A stretch of 64,000 nt of DNA from a virus (IMGVR_UViG_3300022555_000003:64001-128000), one strand, 5' to 3'. Numbered from the stretch's first letter, positions 9,044 through 58,695 are shown. Notes: generated by a model from the sequence alone, not told the origin. A program made the numbers and translations.

Positions 9044-9445
9044 ATGCAGATCAAATCAATAGATGGAAACTTATTGAAAACAACTGACTCTAAAACTTTG
9101 GTAAGATCTAATTTGAGTTGGAGTGCGTTGTGCAATGCAAATTTTAAAAATGCAAATTTGAATGGTGCAAATTTAAAAGGATCCAATTTGTTTGGAGCAG
9201 ACTTGAGTGGAGCATCTTTAAAAGGTGCTTGTTTATCTTCTGCAATATTAAACTTTGCAAATTTGGAATGTGCAGATCTTATGAACGCAACTCTGTATAA
9301 TGCAGATTTGCGAAGTTCAAATTTAATTGGAATAAATTTTGAAAATGTAAAAGTAGATTCATTTACACGAATCGATTCAACAACACTACTTGATCAAAAT
9401 CAACTTACATATTTGTTACTCAAAGGAGTTAAATATGCAAATTAA
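9044..9445 (+). CDS. Capped pentapeptide-repeat protein, copy 1
   Basis: A(N/D)L-xx repeats between MQIKSIDG and [13 protein letters not shown]. Confidence 0.85.
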   Translation: MQIKSIDGNLLKTTDSKTLVRSNLSWSALCNANFKNANLNGANLKGSNLFGADLSGASLKGACLSSAILNFANLECADLMNATLYNADLRSSNLIGINFENVKVDSFTRIDSTTLLDQNQLTYLLLKGVKYAN

Positions 9446-9656
9446 AAACTTAAAAGGTCAATTAATACAACCAAACAAATATGAAACATTGTCTGGTATA
9501 AATTTGCGTTATTCCGACTTGCATGGTGCAGACTTGCGTGGTGCAAACTTACAAAATATCAAATTAAATAAAGATACTTTCATAAACGAAACAACATTAA
9601 TAGACGCAGAACAGCTTACATATTTAATACTCAAAGGACTCACATATGCAAATTAA
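9435..9656 (+). CDS. Capped pentapeptide-repeat protein, copy 2 (shortest)
   Basis: True start MQIKNLKG at 9435 after AAAGGAG; ends IDAEQLTYLILKG. Confidence 0.8.
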   Translation: MQIKNLKGQLIQPNKYETLSGINLRYSDLHGADLRGANLQNIKLNKDTFINETTLIDAEQLTYLILKGLTYAN

Positions 9657-10086
9657 AAACTTAGAAGGTCAAGTATTAAGTAATGTGTATTCTAAAAAAT
9701 TGTGTTGGTTAGACTTGTGTTATATAAATTTATGTGGTGCTGAATTATCTTGTCAGAATTTACACGATTCGAGATGTAAGAATACAAATTTTAGTTATGC
9801 AAATTTAAGCTTTACTATGTTACATGCTATAGAAGGAGAAGGTGCAAATTTTGCTTATGCAGATCTGCATAATGCAGATTTAAGACTGTCAAATTTGAAA
9901 AAAGCAAACTTTATTAATGCTAACTTATCTAATGCAGATTTACGAAATACAGATTTACGTGGTGCAGATTTTCGTGGTGCTAATTTAGAAAATGTAAAAA
10001 TAGACGCGAACATAAGTATTGATTCTTCAACATTATTTGATGAGGAACAATTAACATACTTAATTTTGAGAGGACTTATATTATGA
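9646..10086 (+). CDS. Capped pentapeptide-repeat protein, copy 3
   Basis: MQIKNLEG...ANLSNADLRNTDLRGADFRG...FDEEQLTYLILRG. Confidence 0.85.
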   Translation: MQIKNLEGQVLSNVYSKKLCWLDLCYINLCGAELSCQNLHDSRCKNTNFSYANLSFTMLHAIEGEGANFAYADLHNADLRLSNLKKANFINANLSNADLRNTDLRGADFRGANLENVKIDANISIDSSTLFDEEQLTYLILRGLIL

Positions 10087-10376
10087 CAGATAGAATATTT
10101 ATTATTATGTGGGATTTGACTGGGTTAGAGTGTGTTGTTGATATAACAGAAGACGAAAAAACTATCGTTTTTGAAACATTACAAGATAAATTTGAATGTT
10201 CTGTCAAGCTAAACCATATGATCGCGATGATGTTGGTGCGTGCAAGAGTAAATTCACATCGCAATTATGAAATATATACATTACAAACATCAAATATTTC
10301 AAAAGAAGATCTAGAAGGATTGTTTGAAGATGAACCTCAAATGATTGTCAACTTAATACGTGAAAAAAATATATAA
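10083..10376 (+). CDS. Hypothetical protein
   Basis: ORF coupled by ATGA overlap to the previous gene. Confidence 0.55.
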   Translation: MTDRIFIIMWDLTGLECVVDITEDEKTIVFETLQDKFECSVKLNHMIAMMLVRARVNSHRNYEIYTLQTSNISKEDLEGLFEDEPQMIVNLIREKNI

Positions 10377-10491
10377 GAAAGCATCACAAATGGAACAAAA
10401 AATTTTTTAACTAGTTCTGAGGCAAGTCCGCATCTCCTTATTAAGGATGCGGTAGTTCACTGGATAAATATTGTTTGAGGAGTAACAACCA

Positions 10492-10875
10492 TTGCAAAAT
10501 CTTGACCACAAACATATTCTAGTAACTGCTTCTGTAAAGAATCCACCTAGATCAGAAGAATTCATTATAGATTGGCTTAGACGATTGATAGCAGCAGTTG
10601 ACATGAAAATAGTTTCTGGTCCATACGCTAAATATGTTACAACTGCTGGGAATGAAGGATTGACTGCTATAGTTTCAATTGAAACTTCGCATTCTTCAAT
10701 TCATGTCTGGAGTGAAGAAGAAATTCCATTTATAAAATTTGATTTATACTCTTGTAAAACATTTGATCCTAGTGTTCCACTAAGTTTTATTAATGAATTT
10801 GAGCCACATTCGTTTGAATGGATATTACTTGATCGAAATAGTGGAATTAATGAAATTGCTCGGGGAAAAGGATAA
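10492..10875 (+). CDS. speD: Pyruvoyl-dependent S-adenosylmethionine decarboxylase-like proenzyme
   Basis: GLTAIVSIETSHSSIHVW..E...FDLYSCK matches the SpeD/SpeH self-cleavage region. Confidence 0.75.
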   Translation: MQNLDHKHILVTASVKNPPRSEEFIIDWLRRLIAAVDMKIVSGPYAKYVTTAGNEGLTAIVSIETSHSSIHVWSEEEIPFIKFDLYSCKTFDPSVPLSFINEFEPHSFEWILLDRNSGINEIARGKG

Positions 10876-10889
10876 ATACTAATAACAAG

Positions 10890-11138
10890 GTGAGTATTTT
10901 GAAGATATCTACGAGAACTATTTTAGAAGAAATAATTTCCGGTTTACCTGAGCACAACAGAAATTTATTAGTTGAATCACGCGGCAATCATATTATTGTT
11001 GGTGCTTTGAATTTCCTCAACAGTGTTAAGGAATCATACGGCGAACAAATTGCTGAAGAAATAGAACGTAGATTATTATCGAGTATTAAAAACAAAGACC
11101 CACAAAAATTCACTAGGGCAACTAAAAAAATTCTTTAA
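10890..11138 (+). CDS. Hypothetical protein
   Basis: GTG start with AAGG RBS after late-type ATAAATA at 10872. Confidence 0.55.
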   Translation: MSILKISTRTILEEIISGLPEHNRNLLVESRGNHIIVGALNFLNSVKESYGEQIAEEIERRLLSSIKNKDPQKFTRATKKIL

Positions 11139-11204
11139 TCACATACTTTTTGAATAGAAAAGATAAATAATAGTATAGCGTAAGCTAAAAGGAGATTTAA
11201 TAAA

Positions 11205-11600
11205 ATGGCTGAAGTAACCCGCGTACACGGTGGTGTTGGTATAGAAGGCGTAATTAATGGTTTAGCTGGTGCACAAGTTGGAGCATCTGTAAAGTTTTTA
11301 CTAGTAACAGTAAAAGAAGTTGGGACAGCCGCTCGCGATCTGCGTCCAGAAATGGCAGCAGGATTGGAGGGCGGTCTTGGACTAGCGGTAGAAGCAATTT
11401 TCCGCGTTTGCCCTCCAATCCTTGCATATTCTGTAGTTGATGATGCATCAGGTGTTATCAATCTAGTTGTTGACGGCCACGCTGTAACATATGATGCAGT
11501 TCAAGCTAATATTCGTGCGTTAGGCACAGTAGTTGGAGCTAATTCAATGGACGTTAGCGGAACAACTGTAGCAGAAGGCACAGTATTCGTAGTTGCGTAA
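11205..11600 (+). CDS. Hypothetical late (probably virion) protein
   Basis: ATAAATA at 11163, AAGGAG RBS, followed by a terminator-like hairpin. Confidence 0.55.
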   Translation: MAEVTRVHGGVGIEGVINGLAGAQVGASVKFLLVTVKEVGTAARDLRPEMAAGLEGGLGLAVEAIFRVCPPILAYSVVDDASGVINLVVDGHAVTYDAVQANIRALGTVVGANSMDVSGTTVAEGTVFVVA

Positions 11601-11618
11601 TATTTAAAGTATAAAAAG

Positions 11619-11656
11619 ATAGGACTATCGATATGTAAGTAGATGGTCCTATTTTC
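11619..11656 (+). terminator. Intrinsic terminator-like hairpin
   Basis: ATAGGACTATC / GATGGTCCTAT stem followed by TTT. Confidence 0.65.
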
Positions 11657-11699
11657 ATGAGTACCAACTCAGTAAATTATCTTTTGGATAAATACTTAT

Positions 11700-12137
<438 letters not shown>

Positions 12138-12150
12138 GTTATAAATTATT

Positions 12151-12939
12151 ATGTTAACACTTACAGCAACTAATACATTTAGTGGGGTAGCAGGGACCAC
12201 AACAGCTATTACTTATAGCATTTTTGGAATGACATTAAAAGATGGAGTAGAAACCTTTGGTGTTCTTGCACAAGGTCAGCTTAACACGTCAGCAGCAGTA
12301 TTATACACAGTTCCTGCTTCTACTTCTACTTTTATCAAAGAAGTTCATTTAGCTAATACAACAAGTAATAATGTTTCTGGTATAGTTCTTTATATAAATG
12401 GAACTGATTATATTAATCAAATTTCTGGAACTTTTAGTATTCCATCAAACGGTTCAGCAACATTAGATAGTAATGGCCGGCTTGTAGTTTGTGATTCAAA
12501 TGGTAGCACATTACAGTCAATAGCTAGCCAAACAGCAACCAATTTAACTGGAACACCAATACTTCCTAATGGAACTATGGCTGTAACTCAATTAGCTGCT
12601 GATTCTTCGACAAAATTAGCTACCACAGCTTATACTGATGCAGCAGTTACAGCATATAGTGTATCGCATTCTACAATTTATCAAATAACAGTTGATTTTG
12701 GAATAAAACCTATTAAAAGTGGGAATTTTACTATTACTGGTTCTGGATGGACAAAAGGAAAACAAGTATTAGTTGTTATGGCACCAAATAGACAAGGAAG
12801 TTTATTATATGATTCTATAGAGTTTGATCAAATAATTGCTACTGGAATTGTAATAAATAGTACAACAATAGAAGTACATTGGGGGAGCAGAACTTGGGTC
12901 TGCAATCAGTACACATTTAATTATTGGTTAGGAAATTAA
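12151..12939 (+). CDS. Putative tail/fibre-associated structural protein
   Basis: DSSTKLATTAY motif typical of phage fibre proteins; Thr/Ser-rich. Confidence 0.55.
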   Translation: MLTLTATNTFSGVAGTTTAITYSIFGMTLKDGVETFGVLAQGQLNTSAAVLYTVPASTSTFIKEVHLANTTSNNVSGIVLYINGTDYINQISGTFSIPSNGSATLDSNGRLVVCDSNGSTLQSIASQTATNLTGTPILPNGTMAVTQLAADSSTKLATTAYTDAAVTAYSVSHSTIYQITVDFGIKPIKSGNFTITGSGWTKGKQVLVVMAPNRQGSLLYDSIEFDQIIATGIVINSTTIEVHWGSRTWVCNQYTFNYWLGN

Positions 12940-12949
12940 GGAAAATAAA

Positions 12950-14440
12950 ATGGCACTTATTGAAAATGGTAATAATGCATCAGGAATTGTTAATGTTGAT
13001 GCAAATTTTGATTTAATGACAACAACACCACAAGTTAACACACGTTATGGTGGTGCAACAGGAACACCAAATTTTGTAGGTGCTTCTAGACTATTTTGTG
13101 AAAATGATCCTGGATTATTAACAGGTATTTCTTTATTGTCTTCACCATATGTAACATATGAAAATAATCTTCAAATTGGATCTTCAACTCCTTTGTTTGA
13201 TTATGAATTCAATGGTACTGCGCAAGACACATCGATGTGGTATTGTGCTTTTTCTACTATGACAATAACACAATCAGGTGGATTTCTTCTTTTAAATGCA
13301 AGTAACATTGGTACAACTGGTTCCGGTGCATATATAACGTCTAGACGATTTTTTAATTTAACAGCTAATGCTGGTTTAAAGTTTGGCACAGTTATTAATA
13401 TTACTCAAGCAGCGGCAGCAAATGAAATTTGGGCTATTGGTTTAGGCACGCCAGCATCAACAACTGCATTGCCAACTGACGGAGTATGGATTCAGTATTC
13501 TAGTGCTGGACTTTTTGGAGTTATAAGTTCAAATGGTGTAATCACACAAACAGGTGCATTACCAGTTGTCAGTCCAATTTCTATTCCTATTAATGCCAAT
13601 AAGTTATTGCAGATTCGAATTAATAATCGTGTAGTACATTTTCTGTATGATGGCAATTTTATAGGTTCTCTGCCAACACCAATTGGACTAGGAATGCCAT
13701 TTATGACTGCTTCTTTGCCGGTATTTGCTCAATATGTAAATACTGGTACTGTTTCTGGCGGAACATTTATGCAATTAAAAATTGGAATGATCGCTGTTGA
13801 TCAGTTTGACTCTCAACTTAGTAAACCATATTCACATATCCAAGCAGGAAAAGGTTTGATGGCATATCAAGGATTACAAGGCGGCACAATGGGATCAAGT
13901 GCTAAAATGCCAAATAATGCTGCACCTGACGCTGGTGCAGCATTAGCAAACGCATCTGCCGCATTTTTAGGTCTAGGTGGTCAATTTTCTTTTCAACCCA
14001 CATTAACATCTGGTTCAGATGGTATTCTTTGTTCTTATGCTAATCCAGTTGGTAGTATTAATCAGACTCCACGTACATTATATATTACTGGAGTTAAAAT
14101 TCAATCAGTAGTAACAATATTGTTTATTGGTGGTCCAGTTATTATGTTTTATTCGCTTGCATTTGGACACACAACAGTTTCTTTAGCACAAACAGAAACA
14201 ACAACATTTGCTACTGCTTCAACAAAAGCCCCTAGACGTATTCCGTTAGGATTAGAATCATTTGTGATTACTTCTCCAATAGGTCAATTATCAGGTACAC
14301 CTCCTGTTACAATGCAATTTACGTCTCCTGTTGTTATTAATCCTGGAGAATTTGTTGCAATTGCAGCAAAAAATATAGGAACAGTAACTTCAGCTGGTGT
14401 TATCACATCTTTAGTTACTTTTGATGGTTATTTTGAATAA
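12950..14440 (+). CDS. Putative virion structural protein
   Basis: 496-aa Gly/Thr/Ala-rich beta protein in the fibre operon. Confidence 0.5.
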   Translation: MALIENGNNASGIVNVDANFDLMTTTPQVNTRYGGATGTPNFVGASRLFCENDPGLLTGISLLSSPYVTYENNLQIGSSTPLFDYEFNGTAQDTSMWYCAFSTMTITQSGGFLLLNASNIGTTGSGAYITSRRFFNLTANAGLKFGTVINITQAAAANEIWAIGLGTPASTTALPTDGVWIQYSSAGLFGVISSNGVITQTGALPVVSPISIPINANKLLQIRINNRVVHFLYDGNFIGSLPTPIGLGMPFMTASLPVFAQYVNTGTVSGGTFMQLKIGMIAVDQFDSQLSKPYSHIQAGKGLMAYQGLQGGTMGSSAKMPNNAAPDAGAALANASAAFLGLGGQFSFQPTLTSGSDGILCSYANPVGSINQTPRTLYITGVKIQSVVTILFIGGPVIMFYSLAFGHTTVSLAQTETTTFATASTKAPRRIPLGLESFVITSPIGQLSGTPPVTMQFTSPVVINPGEFVAIAAKNIGTVTSAGVITSLVTFDGYFE

Positions 14441-14453
14441 ATAGTTTGTATTT

Positions 14454-14484
14454 TGATAGGGTCAAGTTAAAATTGACCCTATCA
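14454..14484. terminator. Perfect 12-bp hairpin (probable terminator)
   Basis: TGATAGGGTCAA-7 nt-TTGACCCTATCA just after the stop of 12950-14440. Confidence 0.6.
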
Positions 14485-14506
14485 CATGGCCGGTAAATAT
14501 TATTAG

Positions 14507-14947
14507 ATGTTAGAACAAGATTTTACCTTATACACATTATTTGATATAACCAAAACAGGCATAATAAAAACTTGTAATGCTGACTTTCCTACTTTTGTAG
14601 ATGAAGCAGATCAACTTATACGTAATAAAAGTGAATGGGATAAGAGTAGAAATCAACAACGAAATTGGGAAATAATAATCCAACTGTTAGGATTTAGAGC
14701 ACAGCCAATTATAAAATCTCCTCCAATGAAAATACTAAATTGTGATATTTTTAAATCAAATTTTGGCTTACAAACTGTTTGGAAGTTAGACTTTAGTTCA
14801 GAGCAACCAGGTGTATATTCACTTGACTTATTTATTAATGAATTTGATAATATTCCTATGATTACTAACTTAAATGAAACAACAAATTTTAATAAATCAA
14901 CATTAACAACACATGGAATAGAAAAAAATGTTTTATTTTTAAACTAA
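14507..14947 (+). CDS. Hypothetical protein
   Basis: ORF track; fits the gene packing. Confidence 0.55.
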   Translation: MLEQDFTLYTLFDITKTGIIKTCNADFPTFVDEADQLIRNKSEWDKSRNQQRNWEIIIQLLGFRAQPIIKSPPMKILNCDIFKSNFGLQTVWKLDFSSEQPGVYSLDLFINEFDNIPMITNLNETTNFNKSTLTTHGIEKNVLFLN

Positions 14948-14964
14948 TTTTGATAAATATTTAC

Positions 14965-15228: not shown

Positions 15229-15263
15229 TAAAGAAGATAAATAATAATATAGGAATATAAAAT

Positions 15264-16298: not shown

Positions 16299-16299
16299 T

Positions 16300-17074: not shown

Positions 17075-17091
17075 TATTATAGGAATATAAA

Positions 17092-26242: not shown

Positions 26243-26869
26243 ATGATACCTAATAACAGAAAAGAGTTTAATAAATCCTGGTTAGTAGAAATGCCTGAAG
26301 GCATTGGCAATATTGAAATATTTGATATGATCCACTATAATATTAAAGATCAGATTCGTAATGGTGCTAAAGTGAATAATGTTACAAATCAACTTAGAAA
26401 AATTGTAGGATCACAAACAGCTTATTATTGGTTTGAAAATAATGGAGAAATTATTCTTGGCGCTGAGTTCTCAATTAATTCACAAAACTATACAGTAAAT
26501 GCAGTAGCTAAGTCACCAAACTGGCGTAAAAAAACACCATATGCTACCGATTTATATAAAGCAGTATTAGATGATACAAACAAAAGTATTCGTATATTCA
26601 GAGATTATCAAATGAGTAATTCTGGATTAGATATGTGGAAAAAATTATTAGATAGTGGTTGTCATATTAGTGTATATGATAGTAAAAATCCTGGAGTATC
26701 TTTTAAAGAAATACACGATACAATAGAACTTGAAAATTACTTTAAAGACGATGATACTAATTTTCGTCGTTACCAATATGTATTAAGTGAAGGACAGGTT
26801 CATTTAGATGTAATTGGATTCTTTAATACCAGACGAATGAGAGAATTAAGTGGTATAAGTTTAATCTAA
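26243..26869 (+). CDS. Hypothetical protein, possibly GNAT-like fold
   Basis: LYKAVL...QMSNSGLDMWKKL resembles GNAT-like phage proteins; weak. Confidence 0.4.
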   Translation: MIPNNRKEFNKSWLVEMPEGIGNIEIFDMIHYNIKDQIRNGAKVNNVTNQLRKIVGSQTAYYWFENNGEIILGAEFSINSQNYTVNAVAKSPNWRKKTPYATDLYKAVLDDTNKSIRIFRDYQMSNSGLDMWKKLLDSGCHISVYDSKNPGVSFKEIHDTIELENYFKDDDTNFRRYQYVLSEGQVHLDVIGFFNTRRMRELSGISLI

Positions 26870-26896
26870 CGTTCGTATTTAAGTCCCAATTTGGAT

Positions 26897-27285
26897 TTAA
26901 TATGCATATTTTAAACCTTTGAGTATCAAATAAGTTAACTGTTCAGGATCAACATAAGTAGATCTAGAAATTTTAGTAAATGAATTTATTTCAACGCCTT
27001 CAAAATTTACACCACATAGATATGTTCCATATAAAATTGCTCCATTTAATGAAGCGCCAGATAGATTAACATTACCTAAATCAGCGAGACTTAAATCAAC
27101 ACCTGTTAAATTAGCACCACTTAAATTAGAATTCGATAAATTTGCATTTCTTAGAGAAGAATAGCTTAAATTGCATCCACGTAAATCTAAATCATTTAAT
27201 TTATACACCAAGATAAATCTGAGTTACAAAGAGTTTCATCGTTGATTGTATATAATAATACTCCTCTAATAGATGTAATAAACAT
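26897..27285 (-). pseudogene. Capped pentapeptide-repeat gene (copy 4) with a 1-nt frameshift near 27198
   Basis: Start MFITSIRGVLLYTINDETLCNSDLSWCIN* at 27285 continues one base out of frame as LNDLDLRGCNL...[18 protein letters not shown]. Confidence 0.7.
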
Positions 27286-28286: not shown

Positions 28287-28343
28287 TTTAAATCTCCTTT
28301 TCTAGTACTCTTTAAGTATAGCAAACATAAAAATCATTGTCAA
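28283..28343 (-). promoter_or_regulatory. Leftward early promoter plus RBS cassette
   Basis: TTGACA-17-TATACT then TAAAGAGTACTAGAAAAGGAGATTTAAAATG, same as the + strand cassette at 28771-28810. Confidence 0.75.
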
Positions 28344-28351: not shown

Positions 28352-28508
28352 CTAAGTCGTTTGTTTTCAGTGCTTAATTCAACACAAAACGTCGTATAAC
28401 GCAGTTTTTAACTGGAGTTGGGGCTCTTATACCAGATATGCCCTAAGAATTGCTTAAATGACGTTTTATTTTGGTTGACTTCTTCTCAACCAAACTGCTA
28501 TACTTAAA
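28352..28508 (+). repeat. 157-bp hairpin plus promoter cassette, copy 1
   Basis: Near-identical to 56143-56299; nested stems, then TTGACT-18-TATACT. Confidence 0.85.
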
Positions 28509-45525: not shown

Positions 45526-46308
45526 CTACACAATTACTTTCAGCGGCTGATATTTCAAACCAGTAGAATTTTTAACATTGCCACGTGGATTGCTAACAAA
45601 TTCACAATCATTTATAGTAGTTTTCATTGGCTTGTGATGGCCATATACCCAAGTACTAATTTTATGATTTTTATCTTCTGATTCGATATACTTTTGTGAA
45701 TTGCTACTAAGCTTAGAACAATCAGCATCAAATATCAAATTTTTATCTGGTACTGTATGGCTAATCATTACAATATTTGTAATATCTGGAGAGTTCTGCA
45801 TTTTTTTAACAGAATGTTGTAAATATTCCAAATCGTTATTATGAATAGTATATAGTTTCATATCATCCATCCAACTACCAGAATCTAATGTTCCGTTGTT
45901 ATTACTATTTTCTGGTCCCCACCAAAGATTTGCTGCCAAAAAGCTTGTTGAATTAATGATTAAAATATGTTCAAATAAATAACTCATATTTTCAATTTTT
46001 GATAGTTTATTTCCAAGATAATCTCTATTACTTTGAATATTATCAAAATTGTTTTGGTGTTCTAAATCTCCATCAATATATAAAACATGTTTATACACTG
46101 AAGAAATCTGCTTTAGTTCATATACTGTTCGATCCAGATCTGAACTAACGTCACCAGCTACTACTGCAATCAAACTGGTTGGGAATGCTTTCCAATTAAT
46201 ACTGGTTGGCCATTCTTCAACATATAAGTCGGAAATCAAATCAAACGATAATAGGGGATGTTGGCTACGCATTTTAATAGAACTCCTTTGTTCTTTTGAT
46301 ATTGACAT
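45526..46308 (-). CDS. Calcineurin-like metallophosphoesterase with degenerate metal ligands
   Basis: FDLISDLY, VVAGDV, IDGDLEH, ISHTVP, WVYGHH, FVSNPRG; start uncertain. Confidence 0.7.
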   Translation of the reverse strand: MSISKEQRSSIKMRSQHPLLSFDLISDLYVEEWPTSINWKAFPTSLIAVVAGDVSSDLDRTVYELKQISSVYKHVLYIDGDLEHQNNFDNIQSNRDYLGNKLSKIENMSYLFEHILIINSTSFLAANLWWGPENSNNNGTLDSGSWMDDMKLYTIHNNDLEYLQHSVKKMQNSPDITNIVMISHTVPDKNLIFDADCSKLSSNSQKYIESEDKNHKISTWVYGHHKPMKTTINDCEFVSNPRGNVKNSTGLKYQPLKVIV

Positions 46309-46483
46309 TTATCATATAATCTGTTATACTAAAGATATGGATGTCAAACTTGCTGGCTGCTATTGGGAAGTTGGCTACGCATTTTAATAGAACTCCTTTG
46401 TTCTTTTGATATTGATATTTATCATATAATCTGTTATACTAAAGATATGGATGTCAAACTTGCTGGCTGCTATTGGGATGTTG
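46255..46483 (+). repeat. 110-bp direct tandem duplication containing a promoter
   Basis: 46255-46364 repeated at 46365-46474 plus a 9-nt tail; TTGACA (copy 1) vs TTGATA (copy 2)-17-TATACT. Confidence 0.9.
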
Positions 46484-50126: not shown

Positions 50127-51110
50127 ATGAATAAACTATTATTAGTATTACTATTGAGTTTTCCATTATGGTCTCAGACATTAGTTAAACAAGAACAACT
50201 TCAATCACAGACTCATCTATCAAATGAAGGAGATTGGTGTCCAGTTTCTATTTTTACCCGAACTTCAGATACTATAATTACTTTCACTAAGGATGCTCCA
50301 ACTACAAGATCTTGTTTCTTACATTTCTCACTTACTTCAACTATTCTATGGACTAAATCAGATACAATTATGATTTTGGATAATTCGACTCCGTTAAATG
50401 ATCTTGTATTTTTTTACTGGTTAGGTCCTGATCTTCATATATCTTCGAGAACTCCTTTTTTCTCTTGTACGATTTGTAAAATTGATGCTCCACGTGTTTT
50501 AGATGTATTTCCAGCAAATGCTTTAATAGCTGGTATGTACAATGTTATTAACGGAAGATGGGATTTATCTGGCCATCCAATTTTTAATCAACATCAAATA
50601 ATTGGGTCTCCAATGGCAATTACTTATATTCCAAATCAAGGTTATACTTTTACTTTTGATATTACTAATCCTAAAGTAGTAGCAGCAACAGAGGCAATCA
50701 ATAATCTAGCTCCTACTGTTAATAAGTCTCTAACTATGATCCAAAATGCTACAACTACTGGAATTAATGAAGTTCAAACTCATGTAAAAAAAGCTGGAGC
50801 AATGCCTTCAGATGTTAATATTCAAAAAGCACAAACTCAATTATTAGAAATACAAACAAAAATAGCAGATTTAAATAATCAAATTAAAATAATAAATCCA
50901 CAAAGTATATATCGTCGTGACCAATATGATTCACAACAGATGAATTTAATACAATCATATATGATAAATTTAGGTATGAAACGCAAAGTCGAAATACCTA
51001 AAACATCAACTTCTACTTGTATTTTAGGTGATTGGTCAATCTCAAATACCTTTCTTTATCTTTGTACTGAAAATTGGAGAAGAATACCTCTTGATAATTC
51101 TACATGGTAA
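50127..51110 (+). CDS. Putative secreted protein with coiled coil
   Basis: Signal peptide-like MNKLLLVLLLSFPLWS-Q; start adjusted. Confidence 0.6.
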   Translation: MNKLLLVLLLSFPLWSQTLVKQEQLQSQTHLSNEGDWCPVSIFTRTSDTIITFTKDAPTTRSCFLHFSLTSTILWTKSDTIMILDNSTPLNDLVFFYWLGPDLHISSRTPFFSCTICKIDAPRVLDVFPANALIAGMYNVINGRWDLSGHPIFNQHQIIGSPMAITYIPNQGYTFTFDITNPKVVAATEAINNLAPTVNKSLTMIQNATTTGINEVQTHVKKAGAMPSDVNIQKAQTQLLEIQTKIADLNNQIKIINPQSIYRRDQYDSQQMNLIQSYMINLGMKRKVEIPKTSTSTCILGDWSISNTFLYLCTENWRRIPLDNSTW

Positions 51111-51469
51111 TGAAGATTAAAACAAAACACGGTGATGTACTTTTTGAATTTGCTGGTGATACATTAGTTGGCGCTCAATTAGAATATGCATATTTAAATT
51201 ACGCATATTTGCGTGATAAGAACTTACAAGATGCCAACTTTAAAAATGCATATTTATATGGGGTTGATTTTCGAGATGCAAATTTGAGTGGAGCGGATAT
51301 GCGTGGCGCATATTTATGTAAAGCAGATCTGCGTGGCGCCAAACTAGATGGCGTATTAATAAATGATATGACACAAATTAGTTCAGCGACCAAACTTGAT
51401 CCCGAACATCTTACATATCTGTTGCTCAAAGGGATTAAATTTTCGAAATATTCTAAATATGATTATTAG
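51110..51469 (+). CDS. Capped pentapeptide-repeat protein, copy 5
   Basis: MKIKTKHG...[13 protein letters not shown]. Confidence 0.85.
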
Positions 51470-51935
51470 AACATTAAAGAATGTAGTACGGCATACATTA
51501 CCATCTGATACATTTGTTGGTGCAGAGTTAAGTTATCTAAATTTAAATGACGCAGATTTACAAGGTGCAGATTTAAGCAAAGCATACATGTATTATACAA
51601 GGCTAGGTAGTGCAGATTTAAGTTATTCAATTTTATATAGAACAAATTTATATTGTGCTACTTTAATTGGTGCAAATTTATATTGTGCTGATCTACATGA
51701 AGTCAATTTACGTGGAGCAGATCTAAGTGATGTGGATTTACGTGGAGCAAATTTAGAATGTGCCAATTTATGTGGCGTCAATTTGACTGGTGCAGATTTA
51801 CGTGGAGCTAATTTTACAGGTGTAGAAATAAATCGCAACACAACATTTCATGAAACTACTAGATTCGATCCTGAGCTAATCACATATTTGATCCTAAAAG
51901 GATTAACATATTTCCCTTTTGCTGTCAACTGTTAA
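51459..51935 (+). CDS. Capped pentapeptide-repeat protein, copy 6
   Basis: MIIRTLKN...[13 protein letters not shown]; start adjusted. Confidence 0.85.
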
Positions 51936-51979
51936 TTTATAATAATTTTAGTTGACATATAGCTGGTCGAACTGCTATA

Positions 51980-52267
51980 ATGGAAAACAAATTAACAGTT
52001 TCAACAGTACGGGAAGCATTACAATATTATATTGGTGTGTCAAGACTAAAAACTGGTGAAATTATAATCCGCAAAGGATTTTATTATCACCACGGATATG
52101 ACTGCCGTCAACTAGCTGATTTTGTTACCGAGAAGCTGCAAGCTGCTGGAATTAAAGCAGTTATTGTTGATAGGGGAGAGAAATGGAAGCCTTTTAGGGG
52201 CGGTTCAACACTTGCCAACAGTAGCCATTGGTTTGTTATAGTTAAAGCGCTGGTTGACATTTCCTAA
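51980..52267 (+). CDS. Hypothetical protein
   Basis: ORF track; its ATG overlaps the -10 box of TTGACA-18-TATAAT, so start uncertain. Confidence 0.5.
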   Translation: MENKLTVSTVREALQYYIGVSRLKTGEIIIRKGFYYHHGYDCRQLADFVTEKLQAAGIKAVIVDRGEKWKPFRGGSTLANSSHWFVIVKALVDIS

Positions 52268-52290: not shown

Positions 52291-52297
52291 AAACATT

Positions 52298-52522: not shown

Positions 52523-52526
52523 GTAT

Positions 52527-52688: not shown

Positions 52689-52690
52689 TT

Positions 52691-52981
52691 ATGAAAATTT
52701 TTACGGATGAAATCGACAGCAGAGCAGAATTGTTTGTTAATGACAATTTTAGCAATCCAACAGACAACGTCAGATTGATTGTCAAAACAGCTATGCTCAT
52801 TGGGGCGTCTATCACAGTAGAATACAATAGCAACTGTTCAAATATTAGTTCAAAAATCTCAGAAATTAGTATTGACGGCAGAAAAAGATGCTATTATGTA
52901 TTAGGTGTTTATTGTCCGTATGATGTAGTTAATGAAGCAATATGTGATTCATGTATTGCTTGTGGACGACTTGGAGATTAA
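52691..52981 (+). CDS. Hypothetical protein with C-terminal Cys cluster
   Basis: C...YCP...CDSCIAC; start uncertain. Confidence 0.45.
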   Translation: MKIFTDEIDSRAELFVNDNFSNPTDNVRLIVKTAMLIGASITVEYNSNCSNISSKISEISIDGRKRCYYVLGVYCPYDVVNEAICDSCIACGRLGD

Positions 52982-52985
52982 AAAT

Positions 52986-54002
52986 ATGAGCGACATAACA
53001 CGAAAATTAGCGACAGTTAGAAAAATTTCAAATATTACTGCAATCCCAGACGCAGACAACATTGTCTGCGCTCAGGTTGATGGATGGAAGGTTGTTGTCC
53101 TAAAGGATCAATTTAGGATTGGCGAGTATGCAGTGTACTTTGAAATTGATTCTTGGATTCCAAAAGACATTGCTCCGTTCCTAACTAAGCCTGGACAACC
53201 TGCCAAAGAATATGAAGGCGTTGTTGGTAATCGGCTTAAGACTATTCGATTGAGAAATCAATTATCTCAAGGACTGTTGATGCCGTTATCTGTTCTACCT
53301 TCAGACGTTAATTATGAACTTGGTTCAGATGTCACAGACTTGTTAGGCATTCTCAAATATGAAGCTCCTGTACCGAACGAAATCGCAGCTCAAGTAAAAG
53401 GTCACTTTCCAAATTTCATTGGCAAAACTGATCAAGAACGTTGCCAAAATTTAACGAACGAAATTGAACAATGGTCATCGGATCCAACAATGACATGGGA
53501 AGTAACAGAAAAGATCGATGGAAAATCTATCACATTTTTTCAAAGAAATGGTGAGGTTAGTTACTGTGGACGGAACTACGAGTTCAAAGATGTAACAACT
53601 CATTCTATTTCTAATGTTAATATTGAAACAATGTTTGCTGATAAAAGTCTGAACATTGCAATTCAAGGCGAAAAAGTTGGACCAGGAATTCAGAACAACA
53701 AGTACAAACTAAACAAGCACTTCTTTTATGTGTTTGATATTTTTGATATCGACAATCAAACGTATTTCACACCAGCAGATCGGCAGAAATATGTTATGGA
53801 CCATAATCTGTTGCATGTTCCAATCTTAAATAAAACTGCTAATTTGAAATCAGTTGATGAACTGTTAGCAGACGCAGACGGCAAATCAATTGTTTGCTCA
53901 ACACTGGACCGTGAAGGAATGGTATTTAAGGCTAACAATGGACGAGGTAATTTTAAGGCAATCTCAAATAAATTTCTTTTGAAATATTCTGACAGAGATT
54001 AA
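52986..54002 (+). CDS. RNA ligase, Rnl2-like DRB0094 family
   Basis: N-terminal RKLATVRKI...AVYFEIDSWIP; motif I TEKIDGKS; QGEKVGPGIQ; FDIF; REGMVFK; FKAISNKFLLK. Confidence 0.9.
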   Translation: MSDITRKLATVRKISNITAIPDADNIVCAQVDGWKVVVLKDQFRIGEYAVYFEIDSWIPKDIAPFLTKPGQPAKEYEGVVGNRLKTIRLRNQLSQGLLMPLSVLPSDVNYELGSDVTDLLGILKYEAPVPNEIAAQVKGHFPNFIGKTDQERCQNLTNEIEQWSSDPTMTWEVTEKIDGKSITFFQRNGEVSYCGRNYEFKDVTTHSISNVNIETMFADKSLNIAIQGEKVGPGIQNNKYKLNKHFFYVFDIFDIDNQTYFTPADRQKYVMDHNLLHVPILNKTANLKSVDELLADADGKSIVCSTLDREGMVFKANNGRGNFKAISNKFLLKYSDRD

Positions 54003-54003
54003 A

Positions 54004-54210
54004 ATGCAAGGTGAAATAATTCCTATTTCAGTAGAAAAACATTTAAACACTTTTTTAGAGCTCGTTGAGTTTGAAACTTGGATGACTAATCACATTGGTC
54101 GTAAACATTATTCATGGGAGAGGATGTATTTTGACTTAATAATTAATGTATGTTATTTCAAAGTTCGTAGTAAGAAAAAACGACTGTGGGTTTTACTTAG
54201 ATGGGGTTAA
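54004..54210 (+). CDS. LxWG-tail miniprotein (basic subtype)
   Basis: TWMTNHIGRKHYSW...VRSKKKRLWVLLRWG. Confidence 0.7.
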   Translation: MQGEIIPISVEKHLNTFLELVEFETWMTNHIGRKHYSWERMYFDLIINVCYFKVRSKKKRLWVLLRWG

Positions 54211-54211
54211 T

Positions 54212-54418
54212 ATGTCCAGGAATATTATCAAAATTAAAATGCTAGATAATACACGATGGTTTGATCAAATGGTTATTATCGATGATTGGATGTCAGAAAA
54301 TATTGGACGGAGAGGATATACCTGGAGGAGAATTGGTAGGGATTTTGTTAACCATGAAATGTCTTATTCAATTCGAAGTAAGAAAAAAGCTACTTGGGTA
54401 TCACTAAAGTGGGGCTAA
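54212..54418 (+). CDS. LxWG-tail miniprotein (basic subtype)
   Basis: DWMSENIGRRGYTW...IRSKKKATWVSLKWG. Confidence 0.7.
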   Translation: MSRNIIKIKMLDNTRWFDQMVIIDDWMSENIGRRGYTWRRIGRDFVNHEMSYSIRSKKKATWVSLKWG

Positions 54419-54676
54419 ATGTCAGTACATATTCCTAATAGACCAAATTTGACATTTGCAGAACATTGTAAACATTTTGACATCACATATAGATTTCTAA
54501 AATATAAAGGAAATACATATCTTATTGTGACAAGTCAAGCAGGTTATATTGACATGTTTTACTATCACAACTACATCATACGTCCATATTTTCCAAATGC
54601 AAAAATTACAAAACATAATAGGTTTCAAACGTCTTTCAAGCTTGGATCAATTTTTGATATTATGAGTCAACTTTAA
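54419..54676 (+). CDS. Hypothetical protein
   Basis: ORF track; abuts previous stop. Confidence 0.5.
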   Translation: MSVHIPNRPNLTFAEHCKHFDITYRFLKYKGNTYLIVTSQAGYIDMFYYHNYIIRPYFPNAKITKHNRFQTSFKLGSIFDIMSQL

Positions 54677-54677
54677 T

Positions 54678-55109
54678 ATGGAAATAAGATCTAGACTTGG
54701 TAAGGTATTATATAAATCAAATTCCATAACATTAGATTATTCAGACTTAAATAATTTAGATTTGCGTGAAGCACAGTTAAGCTATTGTAATTTACGTCTT
54801 ATAAATTTCAGCGGAGCAAACTTGAGTGGTGCTGATTTGTTTGATTCATATTTACATTTATCTAATTTAACTAATGCAGATTTAAGTTATGCAAATTTAT
54901 TTGCAACAGAAGTAATTGAGGTTGATTTTTGTGGAGCAGATTTAAGTTATGCTAATTTGGAGTCTGCAATATTATGTGATTCAGATTTACGTGGAGCAAA
55001 ATTAGACGGTGTCAAAGTAAACGACAGAACTAGAATTAATTCATCTACTAAACTTGATCCAGAACAACTCACATACTTAATACTCGTGGGACTCAAATAT
55101 GGAGATTAG
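54678..55109 (+). CDS. Capped pentapeptide-repeat protein, copy 7
   Basis: MEIRSRLG...LDPEQLTYLILVG. Confidence 0.85.
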   Translation: MEIRSRLGKVLYKSNSITLDYSDLNNLDLREAQLSYCNLRLINFSGANLSGADLFDSYLHLSNLTNADLSYANLFATEVIEVDFCGADLSYANLESAILCDSDLRGAKLDGVKVNDRTRINSSTKLDPEQLTYLILVGLKYGD

Positions 55110-55620
55110 ATCTAAATTAGGAAACGTATTGTGTAATGTTGATAGCTCTATATTAGCTGGAGCGGATTTAAGTCATCACACATTACAAAATGCAGATTTA
55201 CGTGGAGCAAAATTAGACGGTGCAGATCTATCAAACGCTGATTTAAGAAGTGCAACTCTTCGCGAAGCTGATTTTAGTAATGCAGATTTACACCATGCAA
55301 ATCTTCATTATGCAAATTTACACGATTCAAATTTTAGTAATGCCAATTTAAATTTTGCTAATTTACATTCCACAGATATATATGGTGCAAATTTTAGAGG
55401 TGCTGATTTATCCAGAGCTAGATTGGATAATTCAGACATGATGTATTCAGATTTTCGTTTTGCAAATTTAACTGGTACAAATTTGAGAGGAGCAGATCTA
55501 AGAGGAGCAAATTTAGACGATATAAAAATTAATCAAGAAACAGTAATTAATTCAGCTACTAAACTTGATCCAGAAAAGCTAACATATTTTATTTTGTCAG
55601 GTGTCCATTATGGTAATTAA
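55099..55620 (+). CDS. Capped pentapeptide-repeat protein, copy 8
   Basis: MEIRSKLG...LDPEKLTYFILSG. Confidence 0.85.
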   Translation: MEIRSKLGNVLCNVDSSILAGADLSHHTLQNADLRGAKLDGADLSNADLRSATLREADFSNADLHHANLHYANLHDSNFSNANLNFANLHSTDIYGANFRGADLSRARLDNSDMMYSDFRFANLTGTNLRGADLRGANLDDIKINQETVINSATKLDPEKLTYFILSGVHYGN

Positions 55621-56146
55621 ATCATTAACTGGCGAAAACATATACAGCACTCACTTCACTACATTAGTTAATGCAGATTTAAGTCTATTAAATTTAGATT
55701 GGGCAGATTTTCATAACAGAGATTTAAGTGAAGCAGATTTACATGGATCTGATTTACGAAGTTCAAATTTGAGTGGAGCACGTTTTCGTGGTGCCAATTT
55801 ATGCGATACAGATTTGTATAATGCAGATTTGAGTTGTGCAGATCTAAGCGGAGCAAATTTAACTGGTGCAGCTTTACATTATGCAGAGTTGCGCTATGCA
55901 AATTTGTATAATGCAGATTTGAGTTGTGCAGATCTAAGCGGAGCAATTTTATCTGAAGCAATACTATGTAATGCTAATTTATCAAATGTAGATTTATGTA
56001 GTGTGGATTTGAGGTTTGCGAATTTAAAGGGTGCAATCTTAGAGGGAATAAAAATAGATGAATTTACCTGAATTGATTCAACTACGCATATTGAGCCTGA
56101 ACAGTTAACATACCTGTTTCTCAAAGGGCTTAAATATAGAGGCTAA
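55610..56146 (+). pseudogene. Capped pentapeptide-repeat gene, copy 9, with in-frame TGA at 56069-56071
   Basis: After TGA the frame continues IDSTTHIEPEQLTYLFLKGLKYRG*; copy 1 has CGA (Arg) at this position. Confidence 0.75.
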
Positions 56147-56299
56147 GTCGTTTGTTTTCAGTGCTTAACTCGACACAAAACGTCGTATAACGCAGTTTTT
56201 AACTGGAGTTGGGGCTCTTGTACCAGATATGCCCTAAGAATTGCTTAAACGACGTTTTATTTTGGTTGACATTTAACCAACCAAAATGCTATACTTAAA
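56143..56299 (+). repeat. 157-bp hairpin plus promoter cassette, copy 2
   Basis: Near-identical to 28352-28508; TTGACA-18-TATACT. Confidence 0.85.
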
Positions 56300-56304
56300 G
56301 AGTA

Positions 56305-56772
56305 ATGAAAACCTACACAGAAGCTGAAATTAGACACAAACTAGCAACTGATGAGCGTTGGGTACGAAGGGCACTCATTAGATTGTACGAACGCCAAACA
56401 CAATCTGAGCAGAGCGCAGAGTCCACTCAAAATCACAACTGCAAGGGCTTTGCTCCGTGCGACGCTAAATGGTTTTCTCGTTTGGCAGTGTTCGTAACAA
56501 AGTACCCCAAAAAGCAGTTGACTCCAAAACAGTTGGCGTTGGTTTGGCGTCCATTTAAGAACCAGCCCGCCATAACAAAGTATGCTGGTCAGCTTATGAA
56601 GGTGATGGCAGAAGACGCAGCGGTAAAGCCAACAGTAGCCCAAATGAATTCAGCTTGCATTAGGTGTGGTGAAGAGCAGCCCATGTGTAAGTGCGAACGG
56701 AAAGCAATGGATGTTGAACACGAACGGTTGATGGAAGAAAAGGCGTTCATGTCCGAAATGATGTATTCATAA
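56305..56772 (+). CDS. Hypothetical early protein
   Basis: ATG 9 nt after TATACT; QT..EQ....T..HN..GF...DA motif; visibly more GC-rich than flanks. Confidence 0.65.
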   Translation: MKTYTEAEIRHKLATDERWVRRALIRLYERQTQSEQSAESTQNHNCKGFAPCDAKWFSRLAVFVTKYPKKQLTPKQLALVWRPFKNQPAITKYAGQLMKVMAEDAAVKPTVAQMNSACIRCGEEQPMCKCERKAMDVEHERLMEEKAFMSEMMYS

Positions 56773-56775
56773 TTT

Positions 56776-56946
56776 ATGGTCCAACCAATCACAAAAGTTT
56801 CTTTAAATAAAGTTATTTCTGGAGTTATCAAAGATTCGATAAGAACGCATGGTGACATCACGCCACAAACAATGTCATCGTTCTCAAAAAGGTTAACTGG
56901 AGAGATGACTGCTGTATTACGTAGAGCTGGTTTCGAGGTTAATTGA
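56776..56946 (+). CDS. Small hypothetical protein (not in ORF track)
   Basis: MVQPITKVSLNKVISGVIKDSIRTHGDI...FEVN*. Confidence 0.45.
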   Translation: MVQPITKVSLNKVISGVIKDSIRTHGDITPQTMSSFSKRLTGEMTAVLRRAGFEVN

Positions 56947-57131
56947 TGTACGTTAAAACACAATTCGAAAAAGATTCTCTGATTGTTCGATACGAGCACG
57001 AACTTGTTTGGTTGAAAAATAAAATTGAGGAATTGAAATTGAAGCTAGATAAAAAACCATCAACTTCAAAACAAATTAAAGACTTGCAACGTCAAATTCG
57101 CCAAACTGAAGTTTTCATTGCATTCATTTGA
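56946..57131 (+). CDS. Small coiled-coil protein
   Basis: TGATG coupling. Confidence 0.45.
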   Translation: MYVKTQFEKDSLIVRYEHELVWLKNKIEELKLKLDKKPSTSKQIKDLQRQIRQTEVFIAFI

Positions 57132-57162
57132 AAATATAAAAAAGATATGTTATAATAGTATT

Positions 57163-57527
57163 ATGAAATGTTTATTGTTAATGTTGTTTTCTGTAGGAGC
57201 ATTGGCGCAATCGTTTGATATCTCAGACAAGAAGTTATTTTATTATTCGGTTGCAGCTCATGGTACTGGAACATATATCTAGATGCTTGGTCATCTTGGA
57301 ATCAAAATGAGGCCAATCAAACACTCCAAGGTGCAAACGGTAAATTTGATGCAAAAGGTGTTGCTATCAAAAGTGCATTCTTTGCTGGAACAACTGTTGT
57401 TGAGCTATTAATTCTGAAAAAGTATCATCCAAAATGGTTGGTAAAGACTTTTACTGTTGCCAACTTTGCTTTAGGTGGAGAATATACTGCAATAGCTATT
57501 AGTAACAAGTACAGACAAAACAATTAA
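57163..57527 (+). pseudogene. Secreted/membrane protein gene broken by an extra AT in ACATATATCTAG (about 57277)
   Basis: Signal peptide MKCLLLMLFSVGALA-Q; removing 2 nt joins ...GTGTY to LDAWSSWNQNEAN...KGVAIK...SNKYRQNN*. Confidence 0.6.
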
Positions 57528-57529
57528 TA

Positions 57530-57919
57530 ATGCAAATCAAATCCAAATCTGGTAAAATACTACATACATTTGATGATAAGACAGATCTGTATGGAGCAAA
57601 TTTAGATCGATTACATTTGCACAATGCAGATTTACGTGGAGCAGATTTGACTTGGGCAACTTTATGTCACACAAATCTGAATGACGCCGATTTAAGCCAT
57701 TCAAATTTGTGGTGGGCAGATTTGAGTTTTACATTGATGAGTGGTACAAATCTACATGGAGCAAATTTAGATTGTGTAAACATGTATTGTGCGGATCTAC
57801 GTGGAGCAAATTTAGAAAATATAGTACTAAACGAAAATACTAATATTGGTCCATCAACTAAACTTGATCCTGAGCAGCTTACATATTTGATGTTAAGAGG
57901 AATTAGATATGGAGATTAA
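57530..57919 (+). CDS. Capped pentapeptide-repeat protein, copy 10
   Basis: MQIKSKSG...LDPEQLTYLMLRG. Confidence 0.85.
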   Translation: MQIKSKSGKILHTFDDKTDLYGANLDRLHLHNADLRGADLTWATLCHTNLNDADLSHSNLWWADLSFTLMSGTNLHGANLDCVNMYCADLRGANLENIVLNENTNIGPSTKLDPEQLTYLMLRGIRYGD

Positions 57920-58355
57920 AACAAAATTTGGTGCAGTAATATTTATAACATTTAATGATACATTGGTTGGTGAAAATTTATGGGGAGCCGACTTTAGTCA
58001 TGCAGATTTCAATGGTATGAATTTAAGTTATGTAAATTTGTGTGAATCAAATTTATATTCTGTAAATTTCTGTCAAGCAGATTTAAGTGGAGCAGACTTA
58101 CTTGGAGCAAACTTATGTAAATCTGATTTACGTGGAGCTAATTTATTTGGAGCAGATTTATTTTGTACAAATCTAATAGGTGCTAATTTAAGTGGAGCAA
58201 ATTTATGTAATGTTGATTTACGTGGAGTCGATTTACGTGGAGCAAAGTTAGATAATGTTATAATAGATCGATTTACAAGAATTAGCAGTACAACTAAAAT
58301 AAGTAAAAAACAACTTACTTATCTATTATTAATTGGTCTCAAATATGCAAATTAA
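57909..58355 (+). CDS. Capped pentapeptide-repeat protein, copy 11
   Basis: MEIKTKFG...ISKKQLTYLLLIG. Confidence 0.85.
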   Translation: MEIKTKFGAVIFITFNDTLVGENLWGADFSHADFNGMNLSYVNLCESNLYSVNFCQADLSGADLLGANLCKSDLRGANLFGADLFCTNLIGANLSGANLCNVDLRGVDLRGAKLDNVIIDRFTRISSTTKISKKQLTYLLLIGLKYAN

Positions 58356-58695
58356 CACAACAATAAGATCATTAACTGGTGAATTATTGCATGTTGGTCC
58401 CGAACTAATTCTATCCAATTTGGATTTAAGTTATGCTAATTTATATGGTAGACGTTTGAGTTTTACATTGATGAGTGGTACAAATCTACTTGGGGCAGAT
58501 TTATTTGGAGCAAACTTACGTGGTGCAGATTTAAGTGGTGCAGATTTAAGTGGTGCTGATATGCGGCAAGCAGATCTACGTGGAGCAAAGTTAGATAATG
58601 TGAAAATAGATGACGATACAAGAATTAGCAGTACAACTAAAATAAGTAAAAAACAACTTACATATTTACTTTTGTTGGGCCTTAATTATGGGTAG
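58345..58695 (+). CDS. Capped pentapeptide-repeat protein, copy 12
   Basis: MQINTTIRSLTG...ISKKQLTYLLLLG. Confidence 0.85.
   Translation: MQINTTIRSLTGELLHVGPELILSNLDLSYANLYGRRLSFTLMSGTNLLGADLFGANLRGADLSGADLSGADMRQADLRGAKLDNVKIDDDTRISSTTKISKKQLTYLLLLGLNYG

Follow-up and report, generated by a model that had tools for sequence, protein, structure and literature searches.

Pentapeptide-repeat proteins (PRPs) are abundant, and a function is known for only a handful of them. By convention, a member of the superfamily has eight or more A(D/N)LxX pentapeptides in an uninterrupted row. The pentapeptide-repeat beta-helices MfpA and Qnr mimic DNA and bind gyrase, and Qnr proteins are about 210 to 220 residues long, with a helix that is interrupted by the surface loops A and B. 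MfpA, Qnr, EfsQnr, AlbG and PENT all have eight coils and form head-to-head dimers via a C-terminal helix (PMC8145042). Very short PRPs that consist of a solenoid and end caps only include Np275/Np276 of Nostoc punctiforme (2J8I, 2J8K), Rfr23, Rfr32 and Alr5209, and PRPs of unknown function are encoded by phages; some of these come from early operons and carry a conserved end domain (PRP-DUF5758 in mycobacteriophages, orf232 in P22-like phages), and another is the length-variable Riverwalk-type gene of Caulobacter phages. Here, we describe a family of capped PRPs in a stretch of viral DNA of 64,000 nucleotides (nt) (IMGVR_UViG_3300022555_000003:64001-128000, hereafter the window). Its members are small cytoplasmic pentapeptide-repeat beta-helix proteins, and together they make up a lineage-specific multigene family. 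We consider the chances about even that they are, taken together, early-made inert binders or decoys, with targets determined by surface and length, in a family confined to this lineage that evolves by birth and death.

The window corresponds to bases 64001-128000 of a single virus record of 242,080 bp (33% G+C), which derives from an uncultured freshwater jumbo phage and is 74% complete according to CheckV; positions are window-based unless labelled genome. An open reading frame (ORF) listing and six-frame motif scans confirmed the twelve copies, at the same starts and in the same five separate loci, that a preliminary description of this DNA had reported, as well as their range in total length of 73 to 178 residues (Table 1). 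When a profile of the copies was compared with the six-frame translation of the entire record, 19 copies were found at nine loci, with matches far beyond chance (E 1e-28 to 1e-57); together, they occupy about 3% of the genome. All ten copies that were scanned against Pfam match PF00805 (E 4e-7 to 1e-38; 29.9-130.6 bits, with a cut-off of 20.2 bits), and the tested copies are members of the pentapeptide-repeat superfamily (PF00805, repeated-five-residues (Rfr) fold). The smallest copy, of 73 residues, has five canonical units and an irregular cap coil, which is under the eight-repeat convention, yet it scores above the Pfam cut-off. Apart from pentapeptide families, the scan returned only weak Decapeptide and CfAFP matches, and an antifreeze-protein reading of the latter (E 0.009) was rejected as repeat noise.

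Each of these proteins is a solenoid held between two shared ends. All twelve window copies have the C-cap T-x-I-x-S-x-T-x-(L)-D-P-E-Q-L-T-Y-L-x-L-x-G, as had been claimed. For the N-cap M-x-I-K/R-S/T-x-x-G-x-x-L, the same claim stood for most copies, where the motif is canonical, and failed for copies 51459, 58345 and 27285, where it is altered. For the part in between, 18 copies were parsed by reading each one backward from its C anchor. This yielded 309 pentapeptides, 5 to 26 in each copy, with the consensus A(D/N)L(S/R)G and without a single loop insertion. The centre position is Leu in 84% of the units (entropy 0.91 bits), with Ala or Ser at position i-2; inward-facing positions are fixed, and outward-facing positions are variable (3.55 bits at i+1 and 3.08 bits at i+2). 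The parse thereby bore out that solenoid length and surface residues both vary between the shared caps. Counted in residues, the distance from Met1 to the Thr-Tyr anchor in the C-cap spans 61 to 166, and in 12 of 17 copies it leaves a remainder of 1 on division by 5. As this holds for all twelve canonical copies (61, 96, 101, 121, 126, 131, 136, 136, 141, 156, 161 and 166 residues), these proteins change in length by whole pentapeptides. After the last canonical repeat, only about 25 residues follow. The C-cap consists of one irregular coil (N-L-E-N-V-K-I-D-x-x-T-R-I-x-S-T-T-K-L), which leads into a helix (D-P-E-Q-L-T-Y-L-I-L-K-G).

An AlphaFold2 model of copy 54678, built with an alignment of the paralogs, reached a mean predicted local distance difference test score (pLDDT) of 94.9 and a predicted template modelling score of 0.88. 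It comprises a beta-hairpin (strands 2-5 and 10-13), a solenoid whose strands are spaced five residues apart, and a helix formed by residues 128-136, and the same plan is predicted for the 73-residue copy (pLDDT 82.6). According to these models, each PRP would be a rigid rod, that is, an unbroken right-handed quadrilateral solenoid of 5-26 pentapeptides that is closed at both ends, by a two-stranded hairpin at the N-terminus and by a unit of irregular coil and 9-residue helix at the C-terminus. Among the best matches to copy 54678 in the PDB, Foldseek returned only PRP structures, with a probability of 1.00 for 2J8K, 3DU1, 2BM4, 2XTW and others. The top TM-score, 0.67, was to the Np275/Np276 fusion 2J8K (root-mean-square deviation 3.6 over 111 columns). 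In being very short, with nothing but a solenoid and end caps, the phage proteins resemble Np275/Np276, Rfr23, Rfr32 and Alr5209, and the best-scoring NCBIfam model was Alr5209, at 58-96 bits, which is below its cut-off of 125. Unlike the phage family, however, Np275/Np276-type PRPs are cellular, and their cap sequences are unrelated; the combination of hairpin and coil-helix caps is the phage family's own. Among described phage PRPs, the PRP-DUF5758 viral cluster was one of the matches in an Atlas structure search. While our copies are likewise phage-encoded, without known function, they differ from PRP-DUF5758 (PF19062) in that they lack its extra C-terminal domain, which Pfam found in none of the ten scanned copies.

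The family shares the A(D/N)LxX quadrilateral beta-helix with MfpA, QnrB1/AhQnr, EfsQnr, AlbG and McbG (2BM4, 6ZT4, 2XTW, 3PSS, 2W7Z, 2XT2), and, like these topoisomerase-interacting PRPs, its members are small single domains closed by a C-terminal alpha-helix. They could be Qnr/MfpA-like DNA mimics that bind host gyrase or topoisomerase IV as mimics of the T- or G-segment, and so modulate or protect topoisomerase during infection. Besides the fold and the helix cap that are common with MfpA, Qnr, AlbG and EfsQnr, several acidic members (net charge -7 to -12, pI 4.3-4.8) speak for this reading; the long ones among them are copies 55099, 55610 and genome 151178-150741(-). In addition, the phage record yielded no gene for a type II topoisomerase, which would imply dependence on the host enzymes, although this absence counts for little because the record is incomplete. 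As a property of the family, which the preliminary description had suggested, DNA mimicry is nevertheless not supported. Net charge, calculated from sequence for all 19 copies, runs from +2 to -12 (pI 4.3-8.5); four copies are positive and five lie within one charge of neutral, which does not point to a strongly and uniformly negative, DNA-like surface as a general feature. Nor did the proposed likeness to gyrase binders hold up: five copies scored 30.5-56.6 bits with the Qnr model NF033086 (cut-off 240) and 27.7-44.1 bits with the MfpA model NF000349 (cut-off 360), about a tenth to a quarter of the curated cut-offs. With 73-178 residues and some 1-6.5 coils, rather than the eight coils of the head-to-head dimers, and with a register that is unbroken from N-cap to C-cap, the proteins have neither the size nor the loops of Qnr, and a single conserved target would hardly explain nineteen diverged copies in one genome. 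We therefore regard a Qnr/MfpA-like role as distinctly improbable for the family; DNA mimicry may apply at most to its acidic, longer members.

The genes within an array are joined in an unusually uniform way. At each of the seven tandem junctions of the window, as well as at one elsewhere in the genome, the genes overlap by exactly 11 nt of the form ATG-SAR-ATT-AA, a sequence that encodes the C-terminal Y-A/G-N/D-stop of the upstream PRP and the M-Q/E-I-K of the downstream PRP; the motif is kept also at the ends of arrays. This layout points to tandem duplication of a single unit and to translational coupling. Since the overlaps are dual-coding, the apparent conservation of the caps is in part forced. 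This bears on the proposal that the caps are docking or oligomerisation modules, through which copies would join end to end, or as C-cap homo- or heterodimers, into rods of combinatorial length. The C-terminal helix does make head-to-head dimers in MfpA, EfsQnr, QnrB1, AhQnr, AlbG and PENT (PMC8145042), the cap helix of the phage proteins is rich in hydrophobic residues (L-T-Y-L-I-L-x-G-L), and co-translation of tandem genes that overlap by 11 nt would yield their products in roughly equimolar amounts. In the AlphaFold models, however, both caps close the ends of the monomer's own solenoid and pack against them, and some of the conservation of the caps is due to the dual coding of the junctions. 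The models and the junctions thus fail to support docking, and we judge it very unlikely. A homodimer prediction for copy 54678 (two copies, paralog alignment) gave a score of 0.00, the mark being 0.42, and was taken as evidence neither for nor against dimers.

The caps match no entry in Pfam, NCBIfam or the PDB and are confined to this phage lineage. Pfam and NCBIfam matches end before the C-cap, and a 36-position C-cap profile gave only chance-level matches in the PDB, to left-handed beta-helix enzymes. Against 1.84 billion protein representatives, searched exhaustively, the C-cap profile had 12 matches at E<=0.001 and 8 at E<=1e-10, all of which are this phage's own products, fragments of these, or products of near relatives. 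A word-index homologue search with the C-terminal 48 residues gave no candidate. Among 79 related loci found in IMG/VR, 78 encode generic pentapeptide proteins without the caps; the one other contig with capped copies carries three, at 67-86% DNA identity. Cultured phages gave trivial matches only when the arrays were compared with them by megablast, and the tblastn matches that do reach the C-terminus (Microcystis MaMV, Acinetobacter Acba phages, Caulobacter RW) belong to longer proteins with other ends. The Microcystis phage PRP MaMV 11L ends in a loosely similar T-P-E-Q helix, and for this reason we read the cap as probably a lineage-specific version of the common PRP-helix closure rather than a new domain.

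We then considered how the family has evolved. Mean C-cap DNA identity among copies is 63%, and just two adjacent pairs reach 83-84%, one of them copies 58345 and 57909 (83%). Over all pairs of paralogs, the C-cap shows proportions of synonymous (pS) and non-synonymous (pN) differences of 0.60 and 0.32, respectively, and the two closest pairs have pS/pN values of 0.39/0.12 and 0.37/0.09. With fewer non-synonymous than synonymous differences, the C-cap appears to be under purifying selection. Neighbouring copies have near-identical repeat blocks (e.g., 97% over 69 nt), and copies 57530 and 58345 have the segment L-S-F-T-L-M-S-G-T-N-L in common. One 98.8%-identical contig lacks exactly 30 nt, or two pentapeptides, in copy 151494. 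This is reminiscent of the Riverwalk-type PRP gene, whose array length shifts in frame between close relatives: near-identical Caulobacter phages differ by a 375-bp in-frame deletion (PMC11053796).

At the same time, copies are being lost. Three of the 19 are disrupted, one by a nonsense mutation and two by frameshifts, and there is one relic; two of the disrupted copies are within the window. In copy 27285(-), the N-cap lies in an ORF of 29 amino acids (27285-27196; MFITSIRGVLLYTINDETLCNSDLSWCIN-stop, stop codon at 27198-27196), and the body continues in a different frame (27211-26897; 104 amino acids counted from TTG). In copy 55610, the paralogs' F-T-R-I-D has become F-T-stop-I-D, with TGA (56069-56071) in place of the Arg codon, and this TGA recurs in a contig of a different sample that is identical over 13.6 kb. 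Recoding of this TGA was considered and rejected, because TGA is a normal stop in this genome, where it ends copy 9646. The relic, which overlaps the stop of the frameshifted copy 27285, is probably the remnant of a deleted copy. Taken together, the three disrupted copies and the relic indicate birth-and-death evolution. The family grows as a unit is duplicated in tandem, with an 11-nt overlap between the 3' end of one unit and the start of the next. Blocks of pentapeptides are gained, lost and exchanged in frame between paralogs, and copies decay.

The same decay would be expected if the arrays had no adaptive role, i.e., if they were repeat-rich DNA, enlarged through unequal recombination within a plastic region, that the phage merely tolerates; that the arrays adjoin recombination-prone repeated elements also fits. 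Against this, sixteen copies have kept open frames despite a DNA identity of only about 63%, pN is below pS in the C-cap, the pentapeptide register is held exactly, and capped copies have been retained in the relative at 67-86% DNA identity. On balance, the absence of any adaptive role seems to us very unlikely.

Contigs from four sequencing runs that aligned to the arrays mainly reflected cross-mapping between paralogs. In run X10, from a lake sample, low-depth contigs skip 90 nt in frame inside copy 55610 (55811-55902), and another in-frame skip, of 343 nt (58273-58617), fuses copies 57909 and 58345. Both joints lie at exact repeats of 45 nt, at about 5x depth, and may be either unequal-recombination variants or assembly artefacts.

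Several arrays are accompanied by promoters of a single class. The pattern TTGACA-N17/18-TGnTATACT occurs nine times in the window (0.66 expected), and a slightly relaxed form of it 32 times in the genome, six of which abut PRP arrays. One such sigma-70-type promoter, with an extended -10 element (TTGATA-N17-TGCTATAAT), lies 12 nt 5' of array A, one is directly 5' of the array at genome 231240, and four are located at most 200 nt downstream of PRP arrays; arrays D and E and copy 27285 lie within units headed by sigma-70-type promoters. The T4 late promoter TATAAATA, in turn, is not enriched in the window (7 found, 14 expected). In addition, a repeat of about 165 nt, in which a long hairpin (AAAACGTCGT...ACGACGTTTT) is followed by a U-run and a promoter, is scattered over accessory regions of the genome. 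For three arrays, the repeat begins at the final PRP gene's stop codon, and it also lies ahead of a fourth array. These elements resemble the promoter-early stem-loop (PeSL) cassettes of T4-type phages, which likewise combine a terminator-like hairpin with a sigma-70-type early promoter, are repeated in plastic regions and flank accessory genes, although the two have no sequence relationship. PeSL terminator-promoter cassettes shuffle accessory genes in T4-type phages (PMC2839356, PMC4122927). Given the units with host-type sigma-70 promoters, in which the arrays are often the last genes and adjoin a terminator-promoter repeat, the PRPs are probably made early and moved as cassettes. In the diverged relative, at 67-86% DNA identity, the PRP genes are on the opposite side of the RF-1-domain gene and number two, versus one here, and this single comparison suggests that recombination takes place at the ~165-nt repeats. 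The gene concerned encodes an RF-1/GGQ-type-domain protein of 120 amino acids (PF00472 annotation; genome ~137852-138214, minus strand) and adjoins a PRP copy.

The promoters also bear on a different use of the N-cap, namely as a capsid-targeting leader through which the proteins would be loaded into the phage head, to be injected together with the genome. PRP N-termini do start with M-x-I-K/R, as this would have it. However, T4-type capsid-targeting leaders end in an I/L-x-E prohead-protease site, and the N-termini of the PRPs (M-Q/E/K-I-K/R-S/T-x-x-G) have Ser, Thr or Asn at residue five instead of Glu and lack this cleavage motif. Residues 2-13 are modelled as a beta-hairpin within the fold (pLDDT ~90), and the genes stand behind sigma-70-type promoters, outside the late structural block. 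We consider such a role extremely improbable.

Table 1. Positions of PRP copies, the relic copy, promoters and terminator-promoter repeats (aa, amino acids).
Feature	Position	Strand	Basis
PRP copy, 133 aa, 17 pentapeptides, opens array A	9044-9445	+	ORF, PF00805 E 1.2e-28, repeat parse
Minimal PRP copy, 73 aa, 5 pentapeptides between caps, 11-nt overlap with preceding gene	9435-9656	+	ORF, PF00805, AlphaFold pLDDT 82.6
PRP copy, 146 aa, 20 pentapeptides; terminal TGA overlaps following ATG	9646-10086	+	ORF, PF00805, repeat parse
Frameshifted PRP copy 27285	27285-26897	-	PF00805 E 8.8e-22 (body)
PRP copy, 119 aa, 13 pentapeptides, array C	51110-51469	+	ORF, PF00805, repeat parse
PRP copy, 158 aa, 21 pentapeptides; promoter next at 51952-51981	51459-51935	+	ORF, PF00805, repeat parse
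PRP copy, 143 aa, 19 pentapeptides, array D; modelled copy	54678-55109	+	PF00805, AlphaFold pLDDT 94.9, Foldseek
PRP copy, 173 aa, 25 pentapeptides	55099-55620	+	PF00805 E 1.3e-38, repeat parse
PRP copy, 178 codons, 26 pentapeptides, in-frame TGA (56069-56071) right before C-cap helix	55610-56146	+	
PRP copy, 129 aa, 16 pentapeptides, array E	57530-57919	+	ORF, PF00805, repeat parse
PRP copy, 148 aa, 20 pentapeptides	57909-58355	+	ORF, PF00805, repeat parse
PRP copy, 116 aa, 13 pentapeptides, four extra N-cap residues	58345-58695	+	ORF, repeat parse
PRP copy outside window	genome 42651-43076		
PRP copy outside window	genome 138622-138203	-	
PRP copy outside window	genome 151494-151168	-	
PRP copy outside window	genome 151178-150741	-	
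PRP copy outside window	genome 231240-231602		
PRP copy outside window; C-cap lost via frameshift beside A-run	genome 231586-231942		
PRP copy outside window	genome 231961-232467		
Relic of further copy, 13 codons, MHIKSKLGLKYER-stop, N-cap fused straight onto C-terminal tail	26866-26907	-	
Sigma-70-type promoter, extended -10, 5' of array A	9004-9032	+	
Sigma-70-type promoter heading the minus-strand unit that presumably ends with copy 27285	28315-28343	-	
Hairpin, U-run and promoter composite from the array D stop codon, repeated genome-wide, PeSL-like	56144-56310	+	
~165-nt terminator-promoter repeat, further copy	28352-28508		
~165-nt terminator-promoter repeat, further copy	genome 43073-43226		
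~165-nt terminator-promoter repeat, further copy	genome 150743-150584		
~165-nt terminator-promoter repeat, further copy	genome 137841-137676		
~165-nt terminator-promoter repeat, further copy	genome 231083-231247		

Apart from the PRP genes, the window encodes a DnaB-like helicase, a SAM decarboxylase, RNA ligases and numerous small genes without known function; the helicase is nearest to those of PA5oct- and Atu_ph07-type jumbo phages (41-46% identity). One RNA ligase (phrog_968, E 3e-83; 52932-54002) is located between arrays C and D, a Zeta_toxin/AAA_33-domain protein of 492 amino acids (59703-61181) follows array E, and a second ligase, of T4 Rnl1-type, follows the array at genome 231240. 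Together with the Zeta_toxin/AAA_33 protein, the ligases may represent a set of RNA-repair genes interspersed among the PRP arrays. Immediately 5' of array D, two small paralogous genes (54004-54210, 68 amino acids; 54146-54418, 90 amino acids) have the common ending ...SKKK-x-x-W-V-x-L-x-W-G, another local duplication. Repeats of other kinds were observed elsewhere in the window: an ORF of 872 amino acids (3215-5833, plus strand) contains long collagen-like G-x-y repeat tracts with periods of 9, 18, 27 and 36 nt, a second repeat array (11829-12094) has eight 33-nt units, and a 110-nt unit is duplicated in tandem at 46255-46483 (97% identity), where each copy has its own sigma-70-type promoter, and a small ORF begins in each. 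The same phage DNA is present in freshwater and lake metagenomes from four studies (2016-2020), and contigs from other samples are 99.98-100% identical to the phage record.

The description of the family as a diversified repertoire of capped pentapeptide-repeat beta-helices has thus been substantiated, and the question is what such a repertoire would be for. In the reading that we favor, the PRPs would act as inert binders or decoys, each with a target set by its surface and length. Candidate targets would be host proteins that are handled during takeover, including defence or DNA-handling proteins, and any particular target is less probable than the binder statement as a whole. A role in anti-defence or host takeover is plausible, considering that the genes lie in sigma-70-type units and that the family is expanding and decaying. 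A number of points weigh against this reading. Three disrupted copies mean that some members of the family are dispensable. The copies are old, as judged from the mean C-cap identity, and the family is therefore not everywhere a currently fast-turning array. Little variation is visible in the population, given the near-identity of assemblies from several samples. Early expression, although probable, is read from promoter sequence. Finally, a binder or decoy role would be the default reading for any capped repeat scaffold.

A more far-reaching version of the binder reading is that the arrays are a library of solenoid binders, continually re-sorted by unequal crossing-over and by block exchange between paralogs and moved by PeSL-like elements, which tracks host defence or DNA-handling proteins and in which several members are length-tuned nucleic-acid mimics directed at different host systems. 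We think this unlikely; if true, such a re-sorted library would be a repeat-protein counterpart of the ankyrin and leucine-rich-repeat host-range families that large eukaryotic viruses carry.

Neither the fold nor the superfamily is new. The novel features are the number of copies, 19; a capped mini-solenoid form that has no further domain and can be as short as 73 residues; a cap restricted to the lineage; dual coding over 11 nt at the junctions; and the link to terminator-promoter repeats. We found no phage-encoded PRP with an assigned role in the literature, and the phrase "pentapeptide repeat" is absent from a 2025 preprint that catalogues 268 phage anti-defence proteins. Should the copies have no targets, the family would merely be a lineage-specific curiosity. 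As it stands, it provides a natural series in which one scaffold occurs with 5-26 repeats and differing surfaces. If the copies bind different host proteins, they would offer a compact system for studying how the surface and length of a PRP encode specificity, as well as a source of new inhibitors for host enzymes or defences. The 11-nt junctions and the terminator-promoter repeats, in turn, illustrate the ways in which families of this kind expand and are moved within jumbo phages.

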